From positions 1 through 36,346 of the forward strand of contig JBGPGO010000026.1 of the NCBI GenBank assembly GCA_041483895.1: 36,346 nt of DNA. The letters are read 5' to 3'. Shown one piece after another: positions 12,456-35,507 of the stretch. The notes beneath the pieces are model-generated. The model ran no database searches. It had not been told where the DNA came from and was given only the letters and a program-made list of their open reading frames with translations. Made by a program: the position numbers and the translations under genes. Origin of the DNA: Fimbriimonadia bacterium. GTDB taxonomy: Bacteria; Armatimonadota; Fimbriimonadia; Fimbriimonadales; JABRVX01. Each line of letters starts with the position of its first letter. The first letter of the stretch is position 1.

Positions 12456-13682
12456 ATGCAGGCCATTTCCGCCATCTCCGTCCCCGGTCTAACAGAACTC
12501 ACACGCGGCAAGGTTCGCCACATGTTCGATCTGGGAGACACGCTGCTGATGGTGGCGTCCGATCGGCTTTCCGCGTTCGACGTGGTGATGCCGACCGGGA
12601 TTCCGTTCAAGGGGCACGTTCTCACTCAACTCAGTGAGTTTTGGTTCGATTTCTTGAATTCCGAAGAGACCGCAAAGCGGAAAGCGGAACTCGCAGGCCA
12701 CCGATTTGTCGATCTCGACGCAATTCAAATCGATGAGACTGTCGCTCATTTGGTAGACGAGGAATTTGCAATTGCCAACGATTTGGTGCCTTTTCGCACG
12801 GACGGAGACAACCTTTGGGTCGCCATGGACAGCGCCAACAATTTGTACGCCATCGATACCGTCCGAGTGAAAACCGGAATGCGCGTCATTCCCGCAATTG
12901 CAACGAGGGAGGCAATTCAGCGAGCCATCGCCGGGCAGTCCGGTGAGTATCCGACCTCTCACCACCCGATTGCGCATCACATGATCACCAATTATTGGCC
13001 CGCTGTCGCCCAAGCCATCCAGGATGCCGGCGGAGAGCCGCTGCCTGAGTTGGCGGGTCGGTCGATGGTCGTCAAGAAGGCCAAACCGGTGATGCTGGAG
13101 TGCGTCGTGAGAGGTTATATCACCGGATCGCTCTGGAAAGAATATCGCCAGGCCGGCGGGCCGGAGCAGGCTGTCGATCTGCATGGCTACGAATTCCCAT
13201 CAGGACTGCGCGACTCGGACCGTTTGCCACGCCCCATCTTCACCCCCGCCACCAAGGCCAGCGACGGTCACGACCAAAACATCGGCGTGAAGGAGGCGGC
13301 GTATCTCGTTGGCGTGGACCTGGTGCGCGAGCTGGAAAGCCGGTCCATCGACGTTTATGCGCGCGCCGACGCCTACGCCGGATCGAGGGGCCTCATCCTC
13401 GCGGACACAAAATTCGAATTCGGACATCACAGCGGCGAACTGATGCTGATTGATGAGGTCTTGACGCCCGACTCGTCTCGCTATTGGGATGCCGAACTGT
13501 ACCAGCCCGGCAAGACGCAGCCGAGTTTCGACAAGCAGTTCGTCCGCGACTATCTGGAGACGCTGGATTGGGACAAGACCCCGCCCGGACCGGAGCTGCC
13601 GGACGACGTGGTCCGCGGCACGACCGAGCGGTATCTGGAGGCGTTTCGCCGGCTGACCGGCCACGGATTGAGGGACGTATGA
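12456..13682 (+). CDS. purC: SAICAR synthetase with an inserted GspE/PilB N-terminal-like domain
   Basis: Motifs GKVR, SDRLSAFD, ECVVRGY..GS, FTPATKA..GHD, DTKFEFG, DEVLTPDSSR, DKQFVR. About 100 extra residues at aa 68-170. Confidence 0.95.
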   Translation: MQAISAISVPGLTELTRGKVRHMFDLGDTLLMVASDRLSAFDVVMPTGIPFKGHVLTQLSEFWFDFLNSEETAKRKAELAGHRFVDLDAIQIDETVAHLVDEEFAIANDLVPFRTDGDNLWVAMDSANNLYAIDTVRVKTGMRVIPAIATREAIQRAIAGQSGEYPTSHHPIAHHMITNYWPAVAQAIQDAGGEPLPELAGRSMVVKKAKPVMLECVVRGYITGSLWKEYRQAGGPEQAVDLHGYEFPSGLRDSDRLPRPIFTPATKASDGHDQNIGVKEAAYLVGVDLVRELESRSIDVYARADAYAGSRGLILADTKFEFGHHSGELMLIDEVLTPDSSRYWDAELYQPGKTQPSFDKQFVRDYLETLDWDKTPPGPELPDDVVRGTTERYLEAFRRLTGHGLRDV

Positions 13683-23989: not shown

Positions 23990-24823
23990 CTAGAATAGTG
24001 GAGCCGTCGATTCGATACATACAAGCCAGCTATTGCGCTGGCGGAGAGCCGCGCAGCGAGCACCTGCAGTTCGTAGGCTGCCAATGTTATAATCAACCGA
24101 CACTTCGCCATGCTTTCCATCTGCAAGACCATCCAGCAAGTAGCTCAGGCTTCCCGGCGGAAGCACGAAGCCAATGCCCAGTGCCTTTCCCAAGGCGAGG
24201 GACGTAGACGACGATGTGACAACCAGCTTAGTAGGCTGAACGCTGGTCCTCGATGGCTCTCGTTGCGGCCGATCAAGCGACATGAATCTCAGGTACACTA
24301 AATTACTTCCGAAGCAATCTGTGATCGCATTTGAAGCGGCTGCCAAAGACACTGTACACTTCCGTGCAATTACGCCGGGCCAAAACAACTTATCATTGCA
24401 CCCACGATCACCAATTAACTCGTTTACAACCCATTCCGGTACAAGTAGTTTTGACGCAAACGCATTGCAAACGCGTTCATGCTTCCAGTAGTTAGACGGC
24501 ACAGGAAGCTCACCAGATTTTTTCCAAATTAAGAAGTGACACAATTCGTGCGCCAAAGAAAATCGCTCTCGACATGACAAAGGCGCGTTGAAATCCCTTC
24601 GATACAGTCGAATCTTGGGCCGATCAGAGAGAACGAACTCAGCCTCAACGATCGCCTTACTTCTGGCAACGGCTCCAGGATAACATCGATCCCGGCGAGT
24701 ATCAAGCGCACCAAATTCGACGAGGACTTCATACTGTCGTATCAAAGCATCAACCGGAACAGGGATCAATTGCGGATTGCGAATTTCGTTCATGTCGTCG
24801 ACCATTGATTCAAGAGTCGTCAT
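23990..24823 (-). CDS. ImmA/IrrE-family (DUF955/M78) metallopeptidase
   Basis: RERFSLAHELCH (HExxH), then E..CNAFASKLLVP and an HTH-like IARKCTVS..AA. ggag SD and ATG 24823 overlap the upstream stop. Confidence 0.88.
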   Translation of the reverse strand: MTTLESMVDDMNEIRNPQLIPVPVDALIRQYEVLVEFGALDTRRDRCYPGAVARSKAIVEAEFVLSDRPKIRLYRRDFNAPLSCRERFSLAHELCHFLIWKKSGELPVPSNYWKHERVCNAFASKLLVPEWVVNELIGDRGCNDKLFWPGVIARKCTVSLAAASNAITDCFGSNLVYLRFMSLDRPQREPSRTSVQPTKLVVTSSSTSLALGKALGIGFVLPPGSLSYLLDGLADGKHGEVSVDYNIGSLRTAGARCAALRQRNSWLVCIESTAPLF

Positions 24824-27269
24824 CGCTTGACTCCTGTAACCAAGCCCAGATGCTTGGCATTTCTGTTGGAAACCTATCAGCCAAGCCAGCCCCAGCGGTC
24901 CTCGCAGCACTTTGCTGCGGGTGAGGTCGAACATGGAGGCGCCCGGTGGGACCGACGAATCGGTCAAGAAATGGCTGGAGATGCGACAATCTGACGGCGA
25001 CCCTCTTGCCTTCAGCAAGCAACGCGGCGTCTCCACGTTTCGTATCGCCTGCACCTGGAGAAACGATTCCCAAAATCATAACTCTCACGTAGTCCCGTAG
25101 GGCATCTAGATAATCGTCCCGACTCGTTTGATCCAAGCGGCTGACGATTCGAGGATGGAAGTAGAATCCGATGCGCCACAATCTGCGAAAACGCCTTAGC
25201 TGCGCATCAAGGTGGCCGCCAGTCAATGCCGATTCATTCGCGTGCTCGTACGCTTCTAATTCATGAACCTCGCCCCCAACGAAAACCTGAACTTTGGCTA
25301 TCTTGTCATTCATCCTCCGCTCAGGACAATACACAGCCAAATCTCCTGGCACCAACCCGAAGTCGGTTTCTGCTAATCTCAAAGCCCGTTCACGATTCAG
25401 GGGAGGGTCAGCATTGTTGTTGCTATCAGCATAAAGATCCTGTACCTTCCGAATTGCATCTGGATTTGCTTCATCAAAGTTCACTGTCAGCAAATGCTCG
25501 TAATAATCGCGGACCAACAACCTGCGCGCAAGTTCTCGGCGAATTTGCTGCGTCTCAGCATTCTGTGCGCCTGCGCCGGCAATGGGGGCCGAGTCTGCCA
25601 GCTTAGGTAGTAATGCATCCTCTGGTGTATCAAGCATGAAATCTTCAAGATCATGGTTCCAACCGGTACGATCACTTTCCCACTCATTCTGAGCGGAGGG
25701 AGGCCTATTTACGTCCCCAAAAGCAAAGGCAAGGCATCTTTCAAGCATTGCAGTTGCCTTCAGCTTAGTTCTATGAAAAAGCACTGCTTCGCTCAAATGA
25801 TAGCGGCTTTCCAACAGATCCAGAATGCCAGATACACCATCGGTTCTTAGCCTCGGGTGGCGACCAATATTTATTACCAAAGAATCGTCGTATTGCTTCT
25901 TCGACTTTTGACCGGGGACGACTGTCGGCGAAGTTCCGTTCGCTGCCGGAAATGTGTCCGGTTTCGCTCTACCACGTATCTCCATGTATTGGAACAGGCG
26001 ATCTTCTAAGTACTTCGGTTTGCCAACGTGATACCAATCTCTGTGAAGGTAATCAAGTAAGTCAGCACAAATCGTATTACCGACAATGTCACTACACATT
26101 TGGAGCCGAATACCTGCATTAGCGCATCGCACGGAAAATTCCTTCTCGACATCTTCTTCCGAAGGATTCTGCAAGGACCGTCGACATTCGAATCCTAATC
26201 GGTTCACAGGGCTTCGTAATATGATTGACAAAGCGACTTCGAAAGCTCGCACTTTAGGGATCATTGTTCCATCCCAATTATCCTGCCCGAAAGCACCTTC
26301 AATGACTGATGCCAAGCATGGTACCCGTTGTCCGTACCATGTTCTCCTTAACATGATCTTGCGTAATCGAGCTTCTTTGTCGTGCTTATTAAGGAGATGA
26401 AGTTCGTCTTCGATCGAATGGCCGAAGGGTAAGTGGCCGATATCGTGTAGGAGAGCCGCAAGCCGAATATATCGCCGTTCTGTGGCGGTAGGTGGAGCCG
26501 CAAGGTCATACTGATCAACGTTGACACCGATCGCCGGCGCCCCAACTTGCTTCGCGATAGCCCGAACATGATTTTCTCTGATCGCCTTGATCATCCGTTC
26601 GGTGATTTCTACCGTACCAAGTACGTGCTCAAATCGTCTGTGAGTTGCTCCTCGGAAGACGGTGAATGCCAATCCCAACTGGCTGAGTTTGCCAAGTCGC
26701 TGGAATGCCGGATGGTCGATGATCATTCGTTCTTGGTCCGTGAACCAACAGAAGCCAACAACTGGAAGGAAGAACTCGTGGGTTAGCGGATCATCCTTTT
26801 CCTCGGGCGAGGAACCATCGCTGCGGTCGCCGCGATGAGATGCAAGTTCCTTCTGAATCCTGCCACTCGGTGAATCTTGAGGTGCCTGCCAAGCAGTTGG
26901 GGAACTCGACCGTGCGTTCGGTTGTTCGGCAGGTTGGGTAGGGTCGACTTCGGCGACCTCTGGGCTCCCGCTGTCGTCGTTCCCTTCTTGATTATAGGGG
27001 AGCCGAAAAGGCTCGGTCGCGCTTTGCTGGAGCGTTGTCGTGGACAATGGCAATAGATCACGGTGTCGACCAGCCTCCCAATCTTCAGCGAAGAGACGGA
27101 TTGCGCTGATCGTCTTCTTTGAAGGATTTCCCTTGCCATTAAGGTAGTCGCTGAGGGTGCTTGGCCCAATCCCAATCCCCTTCGAGATTTCCTTGAGATT
27201 TAGGCCCGTAGATTGCAGTCCGTTGACAATAATTCGAATCTGCTCCATTTGTCGCTGGTCCATGCTCAT
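24810..27269 (-). CDS. XRE-HTH fused to a SAMHD1-like HD-domain phosphohydrolase (putative dNTP triphosphohydrolase)
   Basis: N-terminal LKEISKGIGIGPSTLSDYLNGK..PS. HD motifs FQRL..LSQLG...VF.GATH.RFEH.LG, AALLHDIGHLPFGH, DLLDYLHRD, R......V.FH. Confidence 0.88.
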   Translation of the reverse strand: MSMDQRQMEQIRIIVNGLQSTGLNLKEISKGIGIGPSTLSDYLNGKGNPSKKTISAIRLFAEDWEAGRHRDLLPLSTTTLQQSATEPFRLPYNQEGNDDSGSPEVAEVDPTQPAEQPNARSSSPTAWQAPQDSPSGRIQKELASHRGDRSDGSSPEEKDDPLTHEFFLPVVGFCWFTDQERMIIDHPAFQRLGKLSQLGLAFTVFRGATHRRFEHVLGTVEITERMIKAIRENHVRAIAKQVGAPAIGVNVDQYDLAAPPTATERRYIRLAALLHDIGHLPFGHSIEDELHLLNKHDKEARLRKIMLRRTWYGQRVPCLASVIEGAFGQDNWDGTMIPKVRAFEVALSIILRSPVNRLGFECRRSLQNPSEEDVEKEFSVRCANAGIRLQMCSDIVGNTICADLLDYLHRDWYHVGKPKYLEDRLFQYMEIRGRAKPDTFPAANGTSPTVVPGQKSKKQYDDSLVINIGRHPRLRTDGVSGILDLLESRYHLSEAVLFHRTKLKATAMLERCLAFAFGDVNRPPSAQNEWESDRTGWNHDLEDFMLDTPEDALLPKLADSAPIAGAGAQNAETQQIRRELARRLLVRDYYEHLLTVNFDEANPDAIRKVQDLYADSNNNADPPLNRERALRLAETDFGLVPGDLAVYCPERRMNDKIAKVQVFVGGEVHELEAYEHANESALTGGHLDAQLRRFRRLWRIGFYFHPRIVSRLDQTSRDDYLDALRDYVRVMILGIVSPGAGDTKRGDAALLAEGKRVAVRLSHLQPFLDRFVGPTGRLHVRPHPQQSAARTAGAGLADRFPTEMPSIWAWLQESSDDDS

Positions 27270-27567
27270 GGCAATTCACGTTGTACCGCAAAGTTCCGTG
27301 ATGATGCATGGGCTTCGGAGGATTTCCAACCCCGATGCGCCGGGGTGGCCCACCAATGCGCCCCTTCTCTTCCGGTCCCCTGACCGACTCACTTGCCTGC
27401 AGACAGACCACGACGTGCTCATGCATCCCGCGTCCTCCCCGTCAGCGCCCCGGACCTCGGCACGCACCGCAGGCGGCCTGGACCCAATGCCGGTAGCTTC
27501 ACGGCGAACTAGAGCCGCCCGGGATTCGTCCTTATTTATGGTAGCCTAACCGATCGAGGAGGTAGGG

Positions 27568-27816
27568 ATGCCGTCCGCCAAAGCCGATCAAGTCAATATG
27601 AGCGCAGAGAAAGCAATCTATCACGGAACCGGGCAGGATATCCTGGCCCAGCACCCCGAGATCCTTCAACAGGAGCTGGAGGTTCGGGTCCTCGCCCCTG
27701 CGTCGCCTGCGCCAAAGCACAAGCAGATCACGTTCGGGATGTTTCCCCAGTTCGCCGGTGTAACCGACGAGGACATCAAGTCGGCCGAGTGGCACGATCC
27801 GGTCGAAGAATTCTAA
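27568..27816 (+). CDS. Small hypothetical protein, antitoxin-like
   Basis: ggagg SD; 82 aa with an acidic C-terminus FGMFP....VTDEDI..AEW. Confidence 0.6.
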   Translation: MPSAKADQVNMSAEKAIYHGTGQDILAQHPEILQQELEVRVLAPASPAPKHKQITFGMFPQFAGVTDEDIKSAEWHDPVEEF

Positions 27817-27846: not shown

Positions 27847-28155
27847 CTATCCTTCCAACAATTCGCGGACATCCCTCGCACCGTGCAGCACCCGAAAAAT
27901 GGTAACGCCGTCCTCGCGTTCCTGGTACACAATCAGATAGCTGAACTTCGTCCAAAACCGCAACGGCTTATCCGTCAGGTCCTCACGCACATGCCCGATG
28001 CCGGGAGACTTGGCGAGGCGGCCAAACTCGGCGTCGAGAAAACGGATCATCCGGTCGGCAGCGGCCTTTTCACCGCTTTCGGCCCAGACATAATCATGGA
28101 TTGCAAGAAGGTCGGCTTCCGCCGCCGGTGCTACAGTCAGCTTCTTGCGAGCCAC
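27847..28155 (-). CDS. parE: ParE/RelE-family toxin
   Basis: Motifs AEADL..I.DY, LA.SPGIGH.REDL, YLIVY, I.RVLHGARD. Confidence 0.9.
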   Translation of the reverse strand: MARKKLTVAPAAEADLLAIHDYVWAESGEKAAADRMIRFLDAEFGRLAKSPGIGHVREDLTDKPLRFWTKFSYLIVYQEREDGVTIFRVLHGARDVRELLEG

Positions 28156-28157
28156 TC

Positions 28158-28439
28158 CTACGCGGATGCCCGGTTCTTTGTGGCGTGCCGGCGTTCCGCC
28201 TCGCGAAGCAGCCCTTCAAGCCGTTCTTCCGTCCACTCGATCCCCAACCCCGCATCAATTTCGTCTATGCCCTTCTGGATCTCCCGCCGCAATTCGTCCA
28301 GACCGATCTTCTTTTGGCGATCGCGCTCATACAGCAGCCGCACTGCCTGTTCCACCACCCCGGCGGCATTTTCGTACCCGCCCGTGGCGACCTTTTCCTC
28401 AATCATCCGCTGAATTTCGGCCGGCAATTCGATGTTCAT
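28158..28439 (-). CDS. parD: ParD-family (RHH) antitoxin
   Basis: MNIELP....MIEEKV.TG.Y....VV..A.RLL...LRREIQKG. Directly upstream of parE. Confidence 0.9.
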   Translation of the reverse strand: MNIELPAEIQRMIEEKVATGGYENAAGVVEQAVRLLYERDRQKKIGLDELRREIQKGIDEIDAGLGIEWTEERLEGLLREAERRHATKNRASA

Positions 28440-28576: not shown

Positions 28577-29353
28577 ATGAAAATAAGAACCCTAATCATC
28601 CTGCCAATCGCCTGTCTCGTGATCGCCGGTTGCCCTGGGAGCCATGCGAAGCGATACACCCATCGGACCGAGGCCGAAAAAGAGGGCCTGCACGGAGCGG
28701 TGGCCAGCATCCGGTTGGATAGCATTATCCAAGACAAGCGTAGGCTCCAGTCGACCGCGACCTTCGATAAGTTTGGCAACAAGGTGAAAGAGGTGGAGTA
28801 TGATGCAACCGGCAAGCCGGACCACACCACCATTGCAACTGTCGACGCCACCGGAAACGTAGTCAACGTACATGCAATCTTGATACTCCCGAGCGGCCCG
28901 CTTGAACAGAATAGCAGCCTCAAGTACGATTTCGGGGGCCATCCCCTATCAATTACATATAAGGGCGTGTTTGGCACGCCCGATGAGACGCTGAAGCTCA
29001 CGTTGGATGCACTGGGCCGGCCAGTAGAAGGGATCATGGAAGGTGCATCGTCGGATCCGACTATGCCTCATAAGCACGTATTCAAATACGACGGACATGG
29101 ATTTTTGACGGAAGATGCGGGCGTAGATGGTAATGGCACCACATGGATGCGCGATGCGTGGCAATATGATAACAATGGTATGCTGACAAAGCAGATCCAC
29201 TGGACGTTCTTGAATGGGATAGCATACACATATAGCAAGCATAAGTTTGACAAGAATGGCAGTTGGATCCGCCGCACTGTGACCGCCAGCGTCAATGGCA
29301 AGTCAAGCACAGGTTCCCGCACGGACATCAGGACGATCACGTATGCGAAGTAG
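28577..29353 (+). CDS. Lipoprotein with YD/RHS-like beta repeats (paralog 1)
   Basis: Lipobox IAGC, GL.G.V motif, repeated YD..G, FDKNGSWI.R and C-terminal RTITY. Confidence 0.8.
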   Translation: MKIRTLIILPIACLVIAGCPGSHAKRYTHRTEAEKEGLHGAVASIRLDSIIQDKRRLQSTATFDKFGNKVKEVEYDATGKPDHTTIATVDATGNVVNVHAILILPSGPLEQNSSLKYDFGGHPLSITYKGVFGTPDETLKLTLDALGRPVEGIMEGASSDPTMPHKHVFKYDGHGFLTEDAGVDGNGTTWMRDAWQYDNNGMLTKQIHWTFLNGIAYTYSKHKFDKNGSWIRRTVTASVNGKSSTGSRTDIRTITYAK

Positions 29354-30086
29354 CCTTCTCTTAGTAGTTTTGAGCGTCGCCGGGTGCGCCAAGCCGCCGT
29401 ATGTTCGCTTGAGCGAGGCCGCAGAAGATGGTCTGCGTGGACCGGTTGTAATGGCGCAGACCGAACATATCCGTGACGGCAAACATGAAGTCTTTTCGAG
29501 AGACACCTATGATCGATATGGTAATCGAGTCCGCATGGAGTTGTTCCCCACCGGAGGCGAACTTTTGGGCGTCGAAACCGAGACGATCGATTCGAAAGGC
29601 CATGTCGTGGAGAAGGCGCTCACAAACAACGGGCCGAACGGTCAGCGGCCAATAATGTTATCCAAATGCACCTATGAGTCTGATGGTAGACCGAAATCCG
29701 AAACCAAGACAATTGCAATTGGAAAGGTGACATCCGTGGTCACGTTCAAATTCGATTCAACCGGCCGGATTTCGGAAAAGACTGAAACGATGACGGGTAG
29801 TGGAAAACCACTCGGACCAATTCTCGAAACACGGAGCTACCATCAAAACGGTCAGCTTTCAAAGCAAGTAAGGGGTAGTAAACCCGGCGAGTCTGGCATG
29901 ACAAACACCGTTACATTTGATCAGCGCGGATTCGAGCAGCAATATGTGATGGCCTTCGACAATAGGACGCTCGTCACGACATATACGAAGTACAAAATCG
30001 ATTCGCATGGAAGTTGGACCAGTCGCAAGGTTGCTTCCGGCGATGACCACTATACTGAGGTCCGCAAAATTCAATATAGAAAATGA
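29343..30086 (+). CDS. Lipoprotein with YD/RHS-like beta repeats (paralog 2)
   Basis: Lipobox VAGC, GLRGPV, YD.YGN, DSHGSW..R and RKIQY. Overlaps the paralog 1 stop. Confidence 0.8.
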   Translation: MRSSLLLVVLSVAGCAKPPYVRLSEAAEDGLRGPVVMAQTEHIRDGKHEVFSRDTYDRYGNRVRMELFPTGGELLGVETETIDSKGHVVEKALTNNGPNGQRPIMLSKCTYESDGRPKSETKTIAIGKVTSVVTFKFDSTGRISEKTETMTGSGKPLGPILETRSYHQNGQLSKQVRGSKPGESGMTNTVTFDQRGFEQQYVMAFDNRTLVTTYTKYKIDSHGSWTSRKVASGDDHYTEVRKIQYRK

Positions 30087-32903: not shown

Positions 32904-34295
32904 TTATTCCCGTTCTGCAGAAGCCTTCACATGCTCCATGGTAGCTGCATCGACCAAACTGCGGCCGAGCATTATCAAAATGGGATCTTCGAATCTTGCG
33001 TCGTGCCAGTTCGTATCCCGAAAGTCGGGCTGAGTGATTGGCAAAGTGGCGGACTCAATAAATCCCTTTGCCTGATGCTGCCATGGGACATCCTGCGTGT
33101 CAAAGTCCAATCCACCCAGCCAAGTACCAGTTAGATCGGAATCGCGAAAGGACGCTCCCTCAATCGAAGCGCCATGAAGACAGGCACGATGAAGCTTTGC
33201 GCCAAACAGATTCGATCGTTGAAGGTACGACCGCAGGAGGAAGCTCCCCTGCAAGTGCGCTCCCTTCATGAAGCACTCCGAAAGATCAACTCCACACATG
33301 AAGCATCCTACCATCGGGTGCGCTTCTGCCAAATGCAGGTCTTGAGATCTGTGGTCAGCTGCATATCTTGCCAACTTCCTCAGAACGCCAGCCAAAATCC
33401 AACTTGTGTCGATCAAACGGCCAGCACAGGTTGATATCTCCTTCGCTGCCGTCGCCCAATGTAATTCCTCACCGATTGTCCAATGCTTTTCAAGCGATGA
33501 GGAGAATTCGGGCACATTAATACAGAGGGCAAGAATTCGAAGGTCCATCTCTACTGTGTCAGTGAACCTCGCCAACGGAACGATGCGCTTCAAGTCACCA
33601 ATTGAGATTCGACCTGCGTTCCGATGGAGCACCGCGGCTATCGACTCCAGGAACGCCCAAAATGCGGATCTATTCAAGTCTGCATATTCGTGCAACAGTA
33701 CTTCTGTGAGCGTGTTCCAATCCGTGGATGCTGCATGTGTAAGATAGTGAAGTACCGACACTATTGCCGCCCGAACATTCTTGTCCTTCTCGCACAAAAG
33801 TGCCCTACATAGTTGCTCGACTCCTCGCCGATAGTATGGATAGTCCAAATACACCACATATGAGGGCCAGCGGCCACTAGGATATTGAGCCAGTGCTAAC
33901 AGCCGATCAGTCGCTCCAGCCCGGGTCCCCGCGTCGACGTTGGCCAGGCAATCCAGGATTTCGCTAAATCGCTCCTCCATTTGGCGTCGCCTGAAATGGT
34001 CCTCTGTTTGAGAACGATTAAGCAAGTAAGTCACTAGCACGCCGATTGCGGCAAAGAAGGTTGCCAAACCTGCTGGAAATTGCAACGCCCAAAGAAGCCA
34101 GGTCGCAATTACAACGATGCCTGCAAGTAATATCCAACCCAAATTCCGATCGATGACTATTCCGAGACTAGTAAGGAACCGTCGGAAGCGGCCACCTTCC
34201 GGCCGTCGCCACATCGCCATCATCCTCCCGGAAACCGCATCTTTACGACGAGGATTCGGAACCGAGTAACTTGAATCTGGCTTCGGCCTTTTCAT
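32904..34295 (-). CDS. Membrane-anchored pentapeptide-repeat protein
   Basis: Two TM helices, an ERFSEI...L......R.GA helical region, and A(H/N/K)L.G(A/S).L pentapeptide repeats. Start uncertain (34295 or 34214). Confidence 0.8.
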   Translation of the reverse strand: MKRPKPDSSYSVPNPRRKDAVSGRMMAMWRRPEGGRFRRFLTSLGIVIDRNLGWILLAGIVVIATWLLWALQFPAGLATFFAAIGVLVTYLLNRSQTEDHFRRRQMEERFSEILDCLANVDAGTRAGATDRLLALAQYPSGRWPSYVVYLDYPYYRRGVEQLCRALLCEKDKNVRAAIVSVLHYLTHAASTDWNTLTEVLLHEYADLNRSAFWAFLESIAAVLHRNAGRISIGDLKRIVPLARFTDTVEMDLRILALCINVPEFSSSLEKHWTIGEELHWATAAKEISTCAGRLIDTSWILAGVLRKLARYAADHRSQDLHLAEAHPMVGCFMCGVDLSECFMKGAHLQGSFLLRSYLQRSNLFGAKLHRACLHGASIEGASFRDSDLTGTWLGGLDFDTQDVPWQHQAKGFIESATLPITQPDFRDTNWHDARFEDPILIMLGRSLVDAATMEHVKASAERE

Positions 34296-34380
34296 TTGGT
34301 GGCCAAGTCCTTCCAAACATCGGCAATCACTCCGAAGATTAGAGGTGTTATCTCTTTGGCCATCTGCATTCGCGCAATGT

Positions 34381-35370
34381 TCACTTACGAAGAATGACTT
34401 TCGCCGCTTCCACATTGGTGGCCAATTCGACCTTAATATCTTCGGACATGGCCGCCCGTTGGAATAGCAAGACCGCCTGTTCAAACAATAGGATGTCAAT
34501 TTCGTGCGCGTGACTAGTGAAAGGATCCTGGAGAAAGATCACTTTCTGGCACAATTCTCTAACGACCGCAGCGGCAATCTGAACATCCCCACCGCGCGGT
34601 CCAGATTGGCACAGCCGGACCTTACTAGCGACCTCCTTCGCATCGCGACCGGCGGCGACGGCAAACTTCTTTACCCAGGCGCCAGTGGTGCCAGTCGTGA
34701 GAATGGCATCGTATTTATCAAAAATTGTGCGCAGATGCTCGACCACGAAGCAGCATAGAGCCAACTTCATACCATCATGTGCTATCAGCGCAAGCACTTT
34801 CATGTCCTTCGTGAGCCCTTCCAATGGAAGATAATCAGGAGGGGGCCTCTTATCAAATATGGGATGTTCGCGCCTCCGTAACTGGCCGAGCCAAGAACCG
34901 ACGGCAGCGCGAGCCGTATGAATATCGGATGCAATGAATACCTCATGCACATTGGCTTCTCGGCGAAGCACCATACTATCTGGCTTTCCAATTACATCGG
35001 CCCAGTCGGTCAAGTGGATAATTCCATCCAACCGACCCTCGACAAGCTCGTACGTCAACTCTATCATGCCTTCGATAGAGGACCCTACTGACACCAAACC
35101 CTCTCGAATCGTCTTTCTCCAACGAGCTAGATCGGCCTCATCGTCGATTGGGAAATCGGTTCCCTCTCGAATGGCTTCTCTATCTACATTATCCAGATCG
35201 CGTTCAACAACCGACATCACATACTCGTGCGTTCTGCCGGTACTGATTACTTCGAAGTGATTGCACAGAGGATACAAATGACGATAAATAAAGTCGTCTA
35301 CTTCACTTGGTCTATTTGCTCGGTATTGCGGTGTACTGATAAAAGCTATTCGCCCGAATTTCTGTGCCAT
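34381..35370 (-). CDS. Tandem methylglyoxal-synthase-domain protein
   Basis: C-terminal domain has ALIAHD..K, TGTTG, SGP.GGD.QI, IFLQDP...HAHE.D, LATN. N-terminal domain is a degenerate copy. SD gggagg. Confidence 0.85.
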   Translation of the reverse strand: MAQKFGRIAFISTPQYRANRPSEVDDFIYRHLYPLCNHFEVISTGRTHEYVMSVVERDLDNVDREAIREGTDFPIDDEADLARWRKTIREGLVSVGSSIEGMIELTYELVEGRLDGIIHLTDWADVIGKPDSMVLRREANVHEVFIASDIHTARAAVGSWLGQLRRREHPIFDKRPPPDYLPLEGLTKDMKVLALIAHDGMKLALCCFVVEHLRTIFDKYDAILTTGTTGAWVKKFAVAAGRDAKEVASKVRLCQSGPRGGDVQIAAAVVRELCQKVIFLQDPFTSHAHEIDILLFEQAVLLFQRAAMSEDIKVELATNVEAAKVILRK

Positions 35371-35507
35371 AGGTCCCTCCCTCAATCATCCCTTGCCTTT
35401 GCCAGCGCATCGAATATATTCCGTGCATCTCAAACAGTTGGACGTCAGACCTAACTGCTTACTGAATGCAAGCTGAAATGGTGCAAGTAGAATTACTAAC
35501 ATCGACG

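Follow-up and report, generated by a model that had tools for sequence, protein, structure and literature searches.

A SAMHD1-like HD phosphohydrolase paired with an IrrE/CapP-type peptidase: a candidate protease-controlled module for nucleotide depletion

The stretch of DNA analysed in this study (hereafter the window; 36,346 nt) comprises positions 1 to 36,346 of contig JBGPGO010000026.1, assembly GCA_041483895.1, from a Fimbriimonadia bacterium of the phylum Armatimonadota. On its reverse strand lie two overlapping genes, one encoding a SAMHD1-like HD phosphohydrolase preceded by a helix-turn-helix (HTH) domain of the XRE type (P0001), and the other a zinc metallopeptidase of the IrrE/PprI/CapP type (P0002). 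Our computational analysis indicates that the two genes are almost certainly a functional pair. The features of this module are the following, with model confidence given as the predicted local distance difference test (pLDDT).

23990..24823, reverse strand: IrrE/PprI/CapP-type Zn metallopeptidase gene (P0002, 277 residues), with a peptidase, an HTH-like linker and a GAF-like domain
24536..24550, reverse strand: HExxH motif (H92 E93 L C H96) of P0002, invariant in 77/77 peptidases; third ligand E116 at 24476-24478
24810..27269, reverse strand: XRE-HTH, linker and SAMHD1-like HD phosphohydrolase gene (P0001, 819 residues), from the open reading frame, Pfam and the structure model
24834..24872, reverse strand: C-terminal [YF]PxGAPS-type element (residues 800-812), ordered in the model, a candidate released piece
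24900..24908, reverse strand: A788-A789-R790 motif in a disordered loop (pLDDT <50 over 774-795), from motif enrichment a candidate peptidase cleavage site (before Arg)
25062..26789, reverse strand: SAMHD1/EF1143-fold HD core (residues 161-736), from profile alignment to SAMHD1, Z 23-25
26790..27074, reverse strand: disordered linker (residues 66-160; pLDDT <50 over 73-151) with one non-conserved F88-R89 dipeptide
27075..27248, reverse strand: XRE-type HTH domain (residues ~8-65; Pfam HTH_3 and VIA), a clade-specific add-on

P0001 measures 819 residues from its first ATG, with Met1, Met3 or Met8 as possible starts, and the protein database holds the form that begins at Met8 (812 residues). The longest open reading frame of P0002 encodes 354 residues from a GTG at 25054; the database form of 277 residues starts at the ATG at 24823 and overlaps the end of the HD gene by 14 nt. 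Both genes are low in G+C content (51.5% for the HD gene and 50.4% for the peptidase gene, versus 59.9% for clpB), so that the module, at ~51%, sits in a genome of 58% in which merely 0.2% of windows of the same size are equally low. At third codon positions the value is ~0.50, versus 0.72-0.76 in four housekeeping genes. A preliminary description, made from the letters of this DNA, had noted two overlapping genes of lower G+C content than clpB, an XRE HTH with a linker of about 90 residues rich in Pro, Ser and Glu, a complete HD catalytic set and an HExxH peptidase. All of this was borne out, the linker (67-160) measuring 94 residues with 34% Pro, Ser or Glu. The same description spoke of a long C-terminal extension; most of it proved to be the second lobe of a SAMHD1-like body (alignment over 160-736), with only residues ~737-819 left outside. 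It had also considered that the HTH fusion might be unique or a mis-assembly. A contig from the public sediment run X2 covers 26708-27368, from the HTH through the linker to the start of the HD domain, with zero differences, and the gene overlap is covered without differences by contigs of runs X1 and X2, X1 being possibly the source sample. Since sediment-run contigs cross both junctions unchanged, the architecture is real, and the HTH recurs in 25 of the 31 members of the clade that holds P0001.

The pairing of the two genes recurs widely. Profile scans with the HD protein, each contributing at most its best 80 matches, gave at least 172 loci, among them 129 scoring 190 bits or more (the long family), 41 under 150 bits (short HD relatives) and two in between, one with a peptidase (L049) and one without (L048), which were not counted. 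When neighbouring genes were clustered without supervision, the peptidase cluster covered 92 loci and the next largest 6. Of the informative loci, 98/103 (88 groups at 80% identity) have the peptidase gene next to the long HD gene, a count made with a profile built from that neighbour cluster itself, and 0/41 loci of short relatives have it; co-occurrence, a check proposed in the preliminary description, is the rule. At five loci (L026, L036, L039, L071 and L190) the peptidase gene is convergent and still adjacent. Five long-family loci are without an adjacent peptidase, two of them with an HD gene broken by insertion sequences, and 26 more end too soon. At L042, L092 and L110, the HD gene seems intact and has no peptidase beside it, and no peptidase match was found in the L042 genome at E 1e-8. 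These orphan genes fit an HD protein that is inert until cut.

Hosts of the module include Acidobacteriota, Actinomycetota, Armatimonadota, Proteobacteria and others, and one further locus (L004, also G200) belongs to an Armatimonadetes genome, the phylum of the window's host. The module is rare and patchy: the long HD form is present in 0/40 relatives, and the peptidase in 3/301 genomes of that phylum. A reciprocal search with the peptidase profile was not independent, as all six matches above 150 bits were known loci; among 34 weaker matches examined, two adjoin a divergent long HD gene. At one locus, a second and more distant IrrE-type peptidase is encoded upstream of the module (L094:4658-5482). 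The short HD relatives (430-490 residues) are often followed by a gene for ~170-190 residues (e.g. L050:9580-10101 and L055:9323-9841, with about a dozen similar cases), which has no Pfam match; SocA/Panacea is a weak lead for it, seen in 13% of one cluster. Short HD gene and neighbour are possibly a sister HD toxin-antitoxin module.

Pfam assigns HTH_3 to residues 22-57 of P0001 (E 3e-7) and HD to residues 212-304 (E 1e-7). An AlphaFold2 model from a 41-sequence alignment (pLDDT 79.9) consists of an ordered HTH, the disordered linker, a large ordered body and a disordered loop at 774-795, and its top Foldseek matches are SAMHD1 and EF1143. By VIA, human SAMHD1 aligns with Z 23.1 and a root-mean-square deviation (rmsd) of 4.1 over 424 residues, spanning 160-736 of P0001; SAMHD1, EF1143 of Enterococcus, BT4208 and Aquifex 2hek all match this region at Z 22-25 over 358-432 residues, and dGTPases and CloA score lower (Z 10-13). 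Curated dGTPase family models of NCBIfam give P0001 16-28 bits, far below their cut-offs of 152-467, and the PADLOC dGTPase model matches residues 178-294 only (E 2e-7). We mapped the active site onto SAMHD1 through a profile alignment, which places the metal site at H215, H275, D276 and D403, the dyad at H284/E287 together with H296, and further equivalents at Q197, L198, R212, H279, Y407, D411 and R489. All of these residues, which include the equivalents of the SAMHD1 H..HD..D metal site, His/acid dyad, His233, Arg164, Gln149, Leu150, Tyr315 and Arg366, whose metal-binding and catalytic roles have been described (PMC7311409), are invariant in 85/85 members. Leu150, the steric gate that shuts ribonucleotides out of SAMHD1 (PMC5207538), corresponds to the invariant L198. 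Judging from these residues, the HD enzyme looks catalytically intact and is likely a deoxy-preferring phosphohydrolase.

The rest of the pocket weighs against a plain dNTPase (dNTP, deoxynucleoside triphosphate). Where SAMHD1 has Tyr374, 152 of 170 scored members have Leu and 5 have Tyr; at the position of His370 they have Ala or Ser, mostly Ala (130 members). Because SAMHD1 Y374I is catalytically dead (PMC5207538), the canonical dNTP may not be what this enzyme hydrolyses, and its substrate may differ accordingly. At the position of SAMHD1 Arg145, P0001 has Gly, and Arg is found in 25/171 long members versus 26/27 scored short relatives. This residue of the allosteric site is mostly lost, consistent with nucleotide allostery having been replaced.

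P0002 matches Peptidase_M78 of Pfam at residues 85-166, and the 77 peptidases compared here are complete, encoded on the same strand as the HD gene, 225-330 residues long and non-identical. The model of P0002 (pLDDT 85.5) folds into three domains, peptidase, HTH and GAF. It aligns with PprI bound to single-stranded DNA (ssDNA) at Z 16.1 (rmsd 4.3, 225 residues) and with CapP at Z 15.1, with all three domains covered (221-225 residues over PprI and CapP), and capP is the best PADLOC model for 76/77 peptidases. CapP and PprI both respond with increased activity to ssDNA, which binds in between their peptidase and GAF domains (10.64898/2026.05.16.725639; PMC10904395). R85 of P0002 lies 7 residues before the first His, the same spacing as R90 of CapP, and is a candidate Arg of the ssDNA groove; across the family, 47% of members have Arg or Lys at this position and 25% an aromatic residue. 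Columns 200, 213 and 262 are likewise conserved as basic or aromatic, the residues of the GAF side of the groove not being alignable one by one. From HExxH to the third ligand, the family has no conserved Cys that could serve as a cysteine switch. The peptidase looks catalytically active from its motifs. A word-based search with P0002 returned P0002 alone and an unindexed one 281 matches, the top of which (P0123) was discarded as an artefact of low-complexity repeats.

According to the preliminary description, the usual repressor substrate is fused to the effector in this module, so that a cut separating HTH from HD could at once relieve repression of the operon and release the enzyme. In favour of this, the window's clade does typically carry the HTH fusion, its linker is long and disordered, and F88-R89 of P0001 lies at a distance from the HTH like that of the F82|R83 site in CapH. 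As a core mechanism, this proposal is not supported by comparison across the family, and we consider it very unlikely. An HTH, whose VIA matches in P0001 are ClgR, C-proteins and the N-terminal domain of DdrO, is found in 27/172 representatives (80% identity), and 25 of these 27 fall in the single clade of 31 (support 0.999) that holds P0001, in a FastTree tree of HD proteins with 13 short HD proteins as outgroup. The other 145/172 carry a disordered N-tail of ~51 residues instead and yet keep the peptidase. Since the peptidase stays intact in HTH-less members, the HTH is an unlikely candidate for its conserved substrate. Neither [FL]R (10/27 versus a shuffle mean of 7.9) nor [AG]A[RYKH] (3/27 versus 3.5) is enriched in the linkers of HTH proteins, of which 12/27 contain L-F-[DE], and the conserved candidate site lies in the C-terminal tail. 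No free-standing HTH of the same type was found beside HTH-less members in a search of limited sensitivity. We propose that the HTH is accessory, possibly an autorepressor added in the window's clade, and not the core switch. One point tells the other way: the HTH of the substrate aids recognition in models of IrrE/DdrO and CapP/CapH (PMC12828697; 10.64898/2026.05.16.725639), which leaves room for a role of the fused HTH in this clade.

The N-tails of HTH-less members have a feature of their own, a Q-L-x-[LI] motif ~10 residues from the start (e.g. in P0119, P0090 and P0122), found in 28/54 members of one clade and similar to half a clamp-binding motif. As a family feature, clamp binding was rejected: Q[LM]x[LIFM] occurs in 35/172 N-tails (shuffle 4.6), yet 28 of the 35 belong to one clade, and the canonical motif (PMC11139829) occurs in 5/172 (shuffle maximum 6) and is absent from P0001.

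Conservation points instead to the other end of the protein. A [YF]PxGAPS-type element ends 154/172 representatives, and h-A-A-[R/Y/K/H] sits ~10-15 residues ahead of it, with Ala in 117 and Arg in 87 of these 154 tails when aligned. A match to [AG]A[RYKH] is present in 83/154 tails, versus a mean of 18.6 (maximum 31) in shuffled tails and 7.0 in random windows, and Arg follows A-A in 47/61 paired proteins. CapP cuts CapH at F82|R83 and requires the Arg (10.1101/2022.04.27.489752), and IrrE cuts at L106|R107 (PMC12828697). Because the obligate partner of a protease of the type that cuts before Arg has a conserved small-small-Arg sequence, placed in a loop that is exposed and otherwise variable, A-A-R is a candidate cut site and, by analogy, the simplest candidate substrate of the peptidase. 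Several observations weigh against this assignment. About one third of the tails have Tyr, Lys or His, or no clear match, at the motif; A-A-R could be merely a structural element; and the tail counts come from related, non-independent sequences. On a single metagenome contig (L089:4209-6671), HD and peptidase are fused in frame with the junction right after A-A, so that the Arg and the YPxGAPS tail are gone. Unless this fusion is dead or artefactual, such a tail-less protein should be lethal if loss of the tail activates a toxic enzyme. Any covariation of peptidase columns with the residue that follows A-A was confounded by one clade, and the correlation of HD and peptidase distances (0.66) reflects co-inheritance only.

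Based on linkage, intact active sites, folds, the motif with its location, and mobility, we infer ssDNA sensing, cleavage and its site, activation by cleavage, the substrate and an anti-phage function. The HD protein would be a SAMHD1-type effector that hydrolyses deoxynucleotides and that its C-terminal tail keeps switched off. The adjacent peptidase, stimulated by ssDNA that arises in phage replication or through DNA damage, would have the HD protein itself as its substrate and cut it ahead of the Arg in A-A-R, in the flexible loop, and release of the terminal YPxGAPS element would turn on nucleotide depletion, stalling the infected cell by abortive infection or dormancy; the XRE-HTH of the window's clade would be an added autorepressor. 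The steps of this scheme differ in strength. The peptidase probably acts on the HD protein, and cleavage rather more plausibly activates than inactivates it, in keeping with the orphan intact HD genes and the lost allosteric Arg. For a cut at A-A-R, we regard the balance as even. The scheme as a whole, in which ssDNA-stimulated tail clipping unlocks deoxynucleotide depletion for defence and the HTH is accessory, is offered tentatively, at somewhat less than even confidence.

The same pairing may also be read as a toxin-antitoxin system similar to RosmerTA, in which the HD protein would be constitutively toxic, the peptidase would act as an antitoxin by cutting or binding it, and infection would remove or inhibit the peptidase. 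The tight, overlapping layout of the two genes suits this proposal, and so do reports that ImmA-domain proteins serve as antitoxins of diverse toxins (PMC10440598; 10.1101/2022.05.11.491447). RmrA models match 70/77 peptidases, weakly (best E 2e-12) and over RmrA residues ~190-260 only, at the peptidase motif, and the ~170-residue gene after short HD relatives suggests partner swapping. Nevertheless, we judge it unlikely. HD genes that seem intact persist without a peptidase at three loci, and the peptidase has the layout of the GAF-bearing, signal-activated IrrE and CapP, with capP as its best model in nearly every case, and not the N-terminal XRE plus peptidase of RmrA. Alternatively, the peptidase might have a trans substrate, either a repressor of the host or a protein of the phage, the HD protein being only a co-regulated effector, since the IrrE, CapP and ImmA substrates characterised in the literature examined are HTH repressors. 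We give this proposal little credence: with hosts spanning many phyla a common trans substrate is unlikely, and the window's genome encodes neither another peptidase nor another HTH of the kinds seen in the module.

Genes surrounding the module were compared with defence models. There are 369 neighbours within 2.5 kb, of which the first 150 (L001-L039) were compared with the PADLOC models at a threshold of E 1e-20. After removal of 4 generic matches (kinase, ABC ATPase, DEAD helicase, beta-galactosidase), 17 of 21 remained, with specific matches (restriction-modification, AbiE, AbiT, pAgo, PDC) in 12/39 loci. Among genes at least 4.5 kb away, 5/140 matched, 4 of them generic, which leaves 1/40 loci (Fisher p 0.0007). 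This distal control was added after the short-HD loci, intended as a housekeeping control, had proved equally defence-adjacent (7/29, p 0.6). Hence, the enrichment in defence islands, which the preliminary description proposed to test, holds against distal genes and fails to set the module apart from its short relatives. A set of 93 hand-picked neighbours, from which no rate is derivable, includes integrases, transposases, toxin-antitoxin, TIR, HEPN and Schlafen genes. Broken copies of the module are frequent. tRNA genes occur in 5/60 loci only, and no promoter, terminator or repeat signal at the module rose above chance. The module is mobile and horizontally moved. At one locus (L012, 7890-10627) it is inserted into a cluster of cell-wall genes, with mraY on one side and ftsW on the other.

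Other aspects of this context speak against immunity: 27/39 loci have no specific PADLOC match nearby, and many lie among housekeeping genes. Among viral contigs, a single-sequence search was empty and a profile search gave 12 short, distant HD genes, none with a peptidase; plasmids gave no match at E 1e-30, and phages one short match and no long-form member. These facts are shared by an explanation in terms of DNA damage, whereby the hydrolase, switched by an IrrE-type sensor, would trim the deoxynucleotide pools or clear them of damaged or modified nucleotides, pausing replication during repair. PprI/IrrE does respond to ssDNA in DNA damage (PMC10904395), and a pocket altered at the Tyr374 and His370 positions would suit such a task. 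However, sporadic spread over phyla, low G+C content, insertion at unrelated sites, broken copies and defence neighbours are typical of conflict systems, and we hold the DNA-damage explanation to be improbable, to about the same degree as the toxin-antitoxin one. On balance, we moderately favour a role in defence. A broader picture, slightly more speculative than the mechanism of tail clipping itself, is that of a hitherto undescribed, phylum-spanning immune system in which an ssDNA-sensing protease would have been rewired from a repressor to an enzyme, with a zymogen-like SAMHD1 that has lost its allostery and whose altered pocket possibly serves modified or non-canonical deoxynucleotides.

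Several other features of the window were recorded. A ParD/ParE type II toxin-antitoxin pair is encoded at 27847-28439 on the reverse strand, 0.6 kb upstream of the module, and an unannotated open reading frame of 82 residues (27568-27816, forward strand) lies between the two. Two adjacent proteins of ~260 residues with lipoprotein-like N-termini, the first with a weak RHS-repeat match, are encoded at 28577-30086 (forward strand). A second stretch of low G+C content (~51%) at 32904-35385 (reverse strand) encodes two proteins of note, one with pentapeptide repeats and the other with a weak MGS-like match. At 12456-13682 (forward strand), MshEN (residues 83-159, E 2.5e-16) is fused ahead of a SAICAR synthetase (PurC) domain, which is unusual.

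The preliminary description did not recognise this architecture as a described system, and we reached the same view. The pair is named by none of the models in PADLOC, NCBIfam and Pfam, and the ESM Atlas clusters of its proteins are labelled 'hypothetical protein'. The literature searched, which excluded preprint supplements and Nicastro et al. 2023 (the likeliest place of an earlier mention), held no description of it, and the examined main text of a 2026 dGTPase survey contains neither 'IrrE' nor 'HTH' (PMC13519002). How nucleotide-depleting enzymes are kept off until infection is an active question, to which Clover gives the answer of a nucleotide signal. If our proposal is true, proteolytic unlocking would be a different answer, for which A789-R790 is the candidate bond. 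The module would moreover provide the first IrrE/CapP-type protease whose substrate is an enzyme and not a repressor, and a defence role for the SAMHD1/EF1143 branch, the bacterial HD branch closest to the human restriction factor.

Compared with known systems, the module combines familiar elements in another arrangement. With SAMHD1, EF1143, BT4208 and 2hek, its HD protein shares the fold, the full metal site and catalytic residues, and the Leu150 gate. It departs from these relatives in having Leu for Tyr374 and Ala or Ser for His370, in having mostly lost Arg145, and in its additional C-terminal region of ~80 residues (with A-A-R and YPxGAPS), its peptidase partner and, in one clade, the XRE-HTH. 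IrrE(PprI)/DdrO and CapP/CapH, and also ImmA/ImmR, have in common with it a three-domain M78 peptidase with HExxH..E, a candidate Arg of the ssDNA groove and a candidate cut before Arg. Unlike CapP/CapH, the module has no separate conserved XRE/HTH repressor gene, and its peptidase is co-oriented downstream of the HD gene instead of divergent upstream of an operon; unlike IrrE and CapP, it has no conserved cysteine-switch Cys, and its likely substrate is an enzyme. The anti-phage dGTPases (Tal et al.) and Clover (CloA/CloB), whose effector is restrained by a second gene (PMC12265719), likewise use a nucleotide-depleting HD effector, whereas the HD protein of the module belongs to the SAMHD1/EF1143 and not the Dgt branch, and its sole conserved neighbour is a protease and not the nucleotidyltransferase CloB. 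RosmerTA (RmrT and RmrA) also consists of two genes, one for a putative toxic effector and the other for a peptidase of the ImmA family; the peptidase of the module lacks the N-terminal XRE-HTH and ends in a GAF domain, and the examined portions of the RosmerTA descriptions (PMC10440598; 10.1101/2022.05.11.491447) mention no HD toxin. Altogether, both parts of the module are of known kinds, and their coupling, as well as the proposed action of an M78-type protease on an enzyme, appear to be new.

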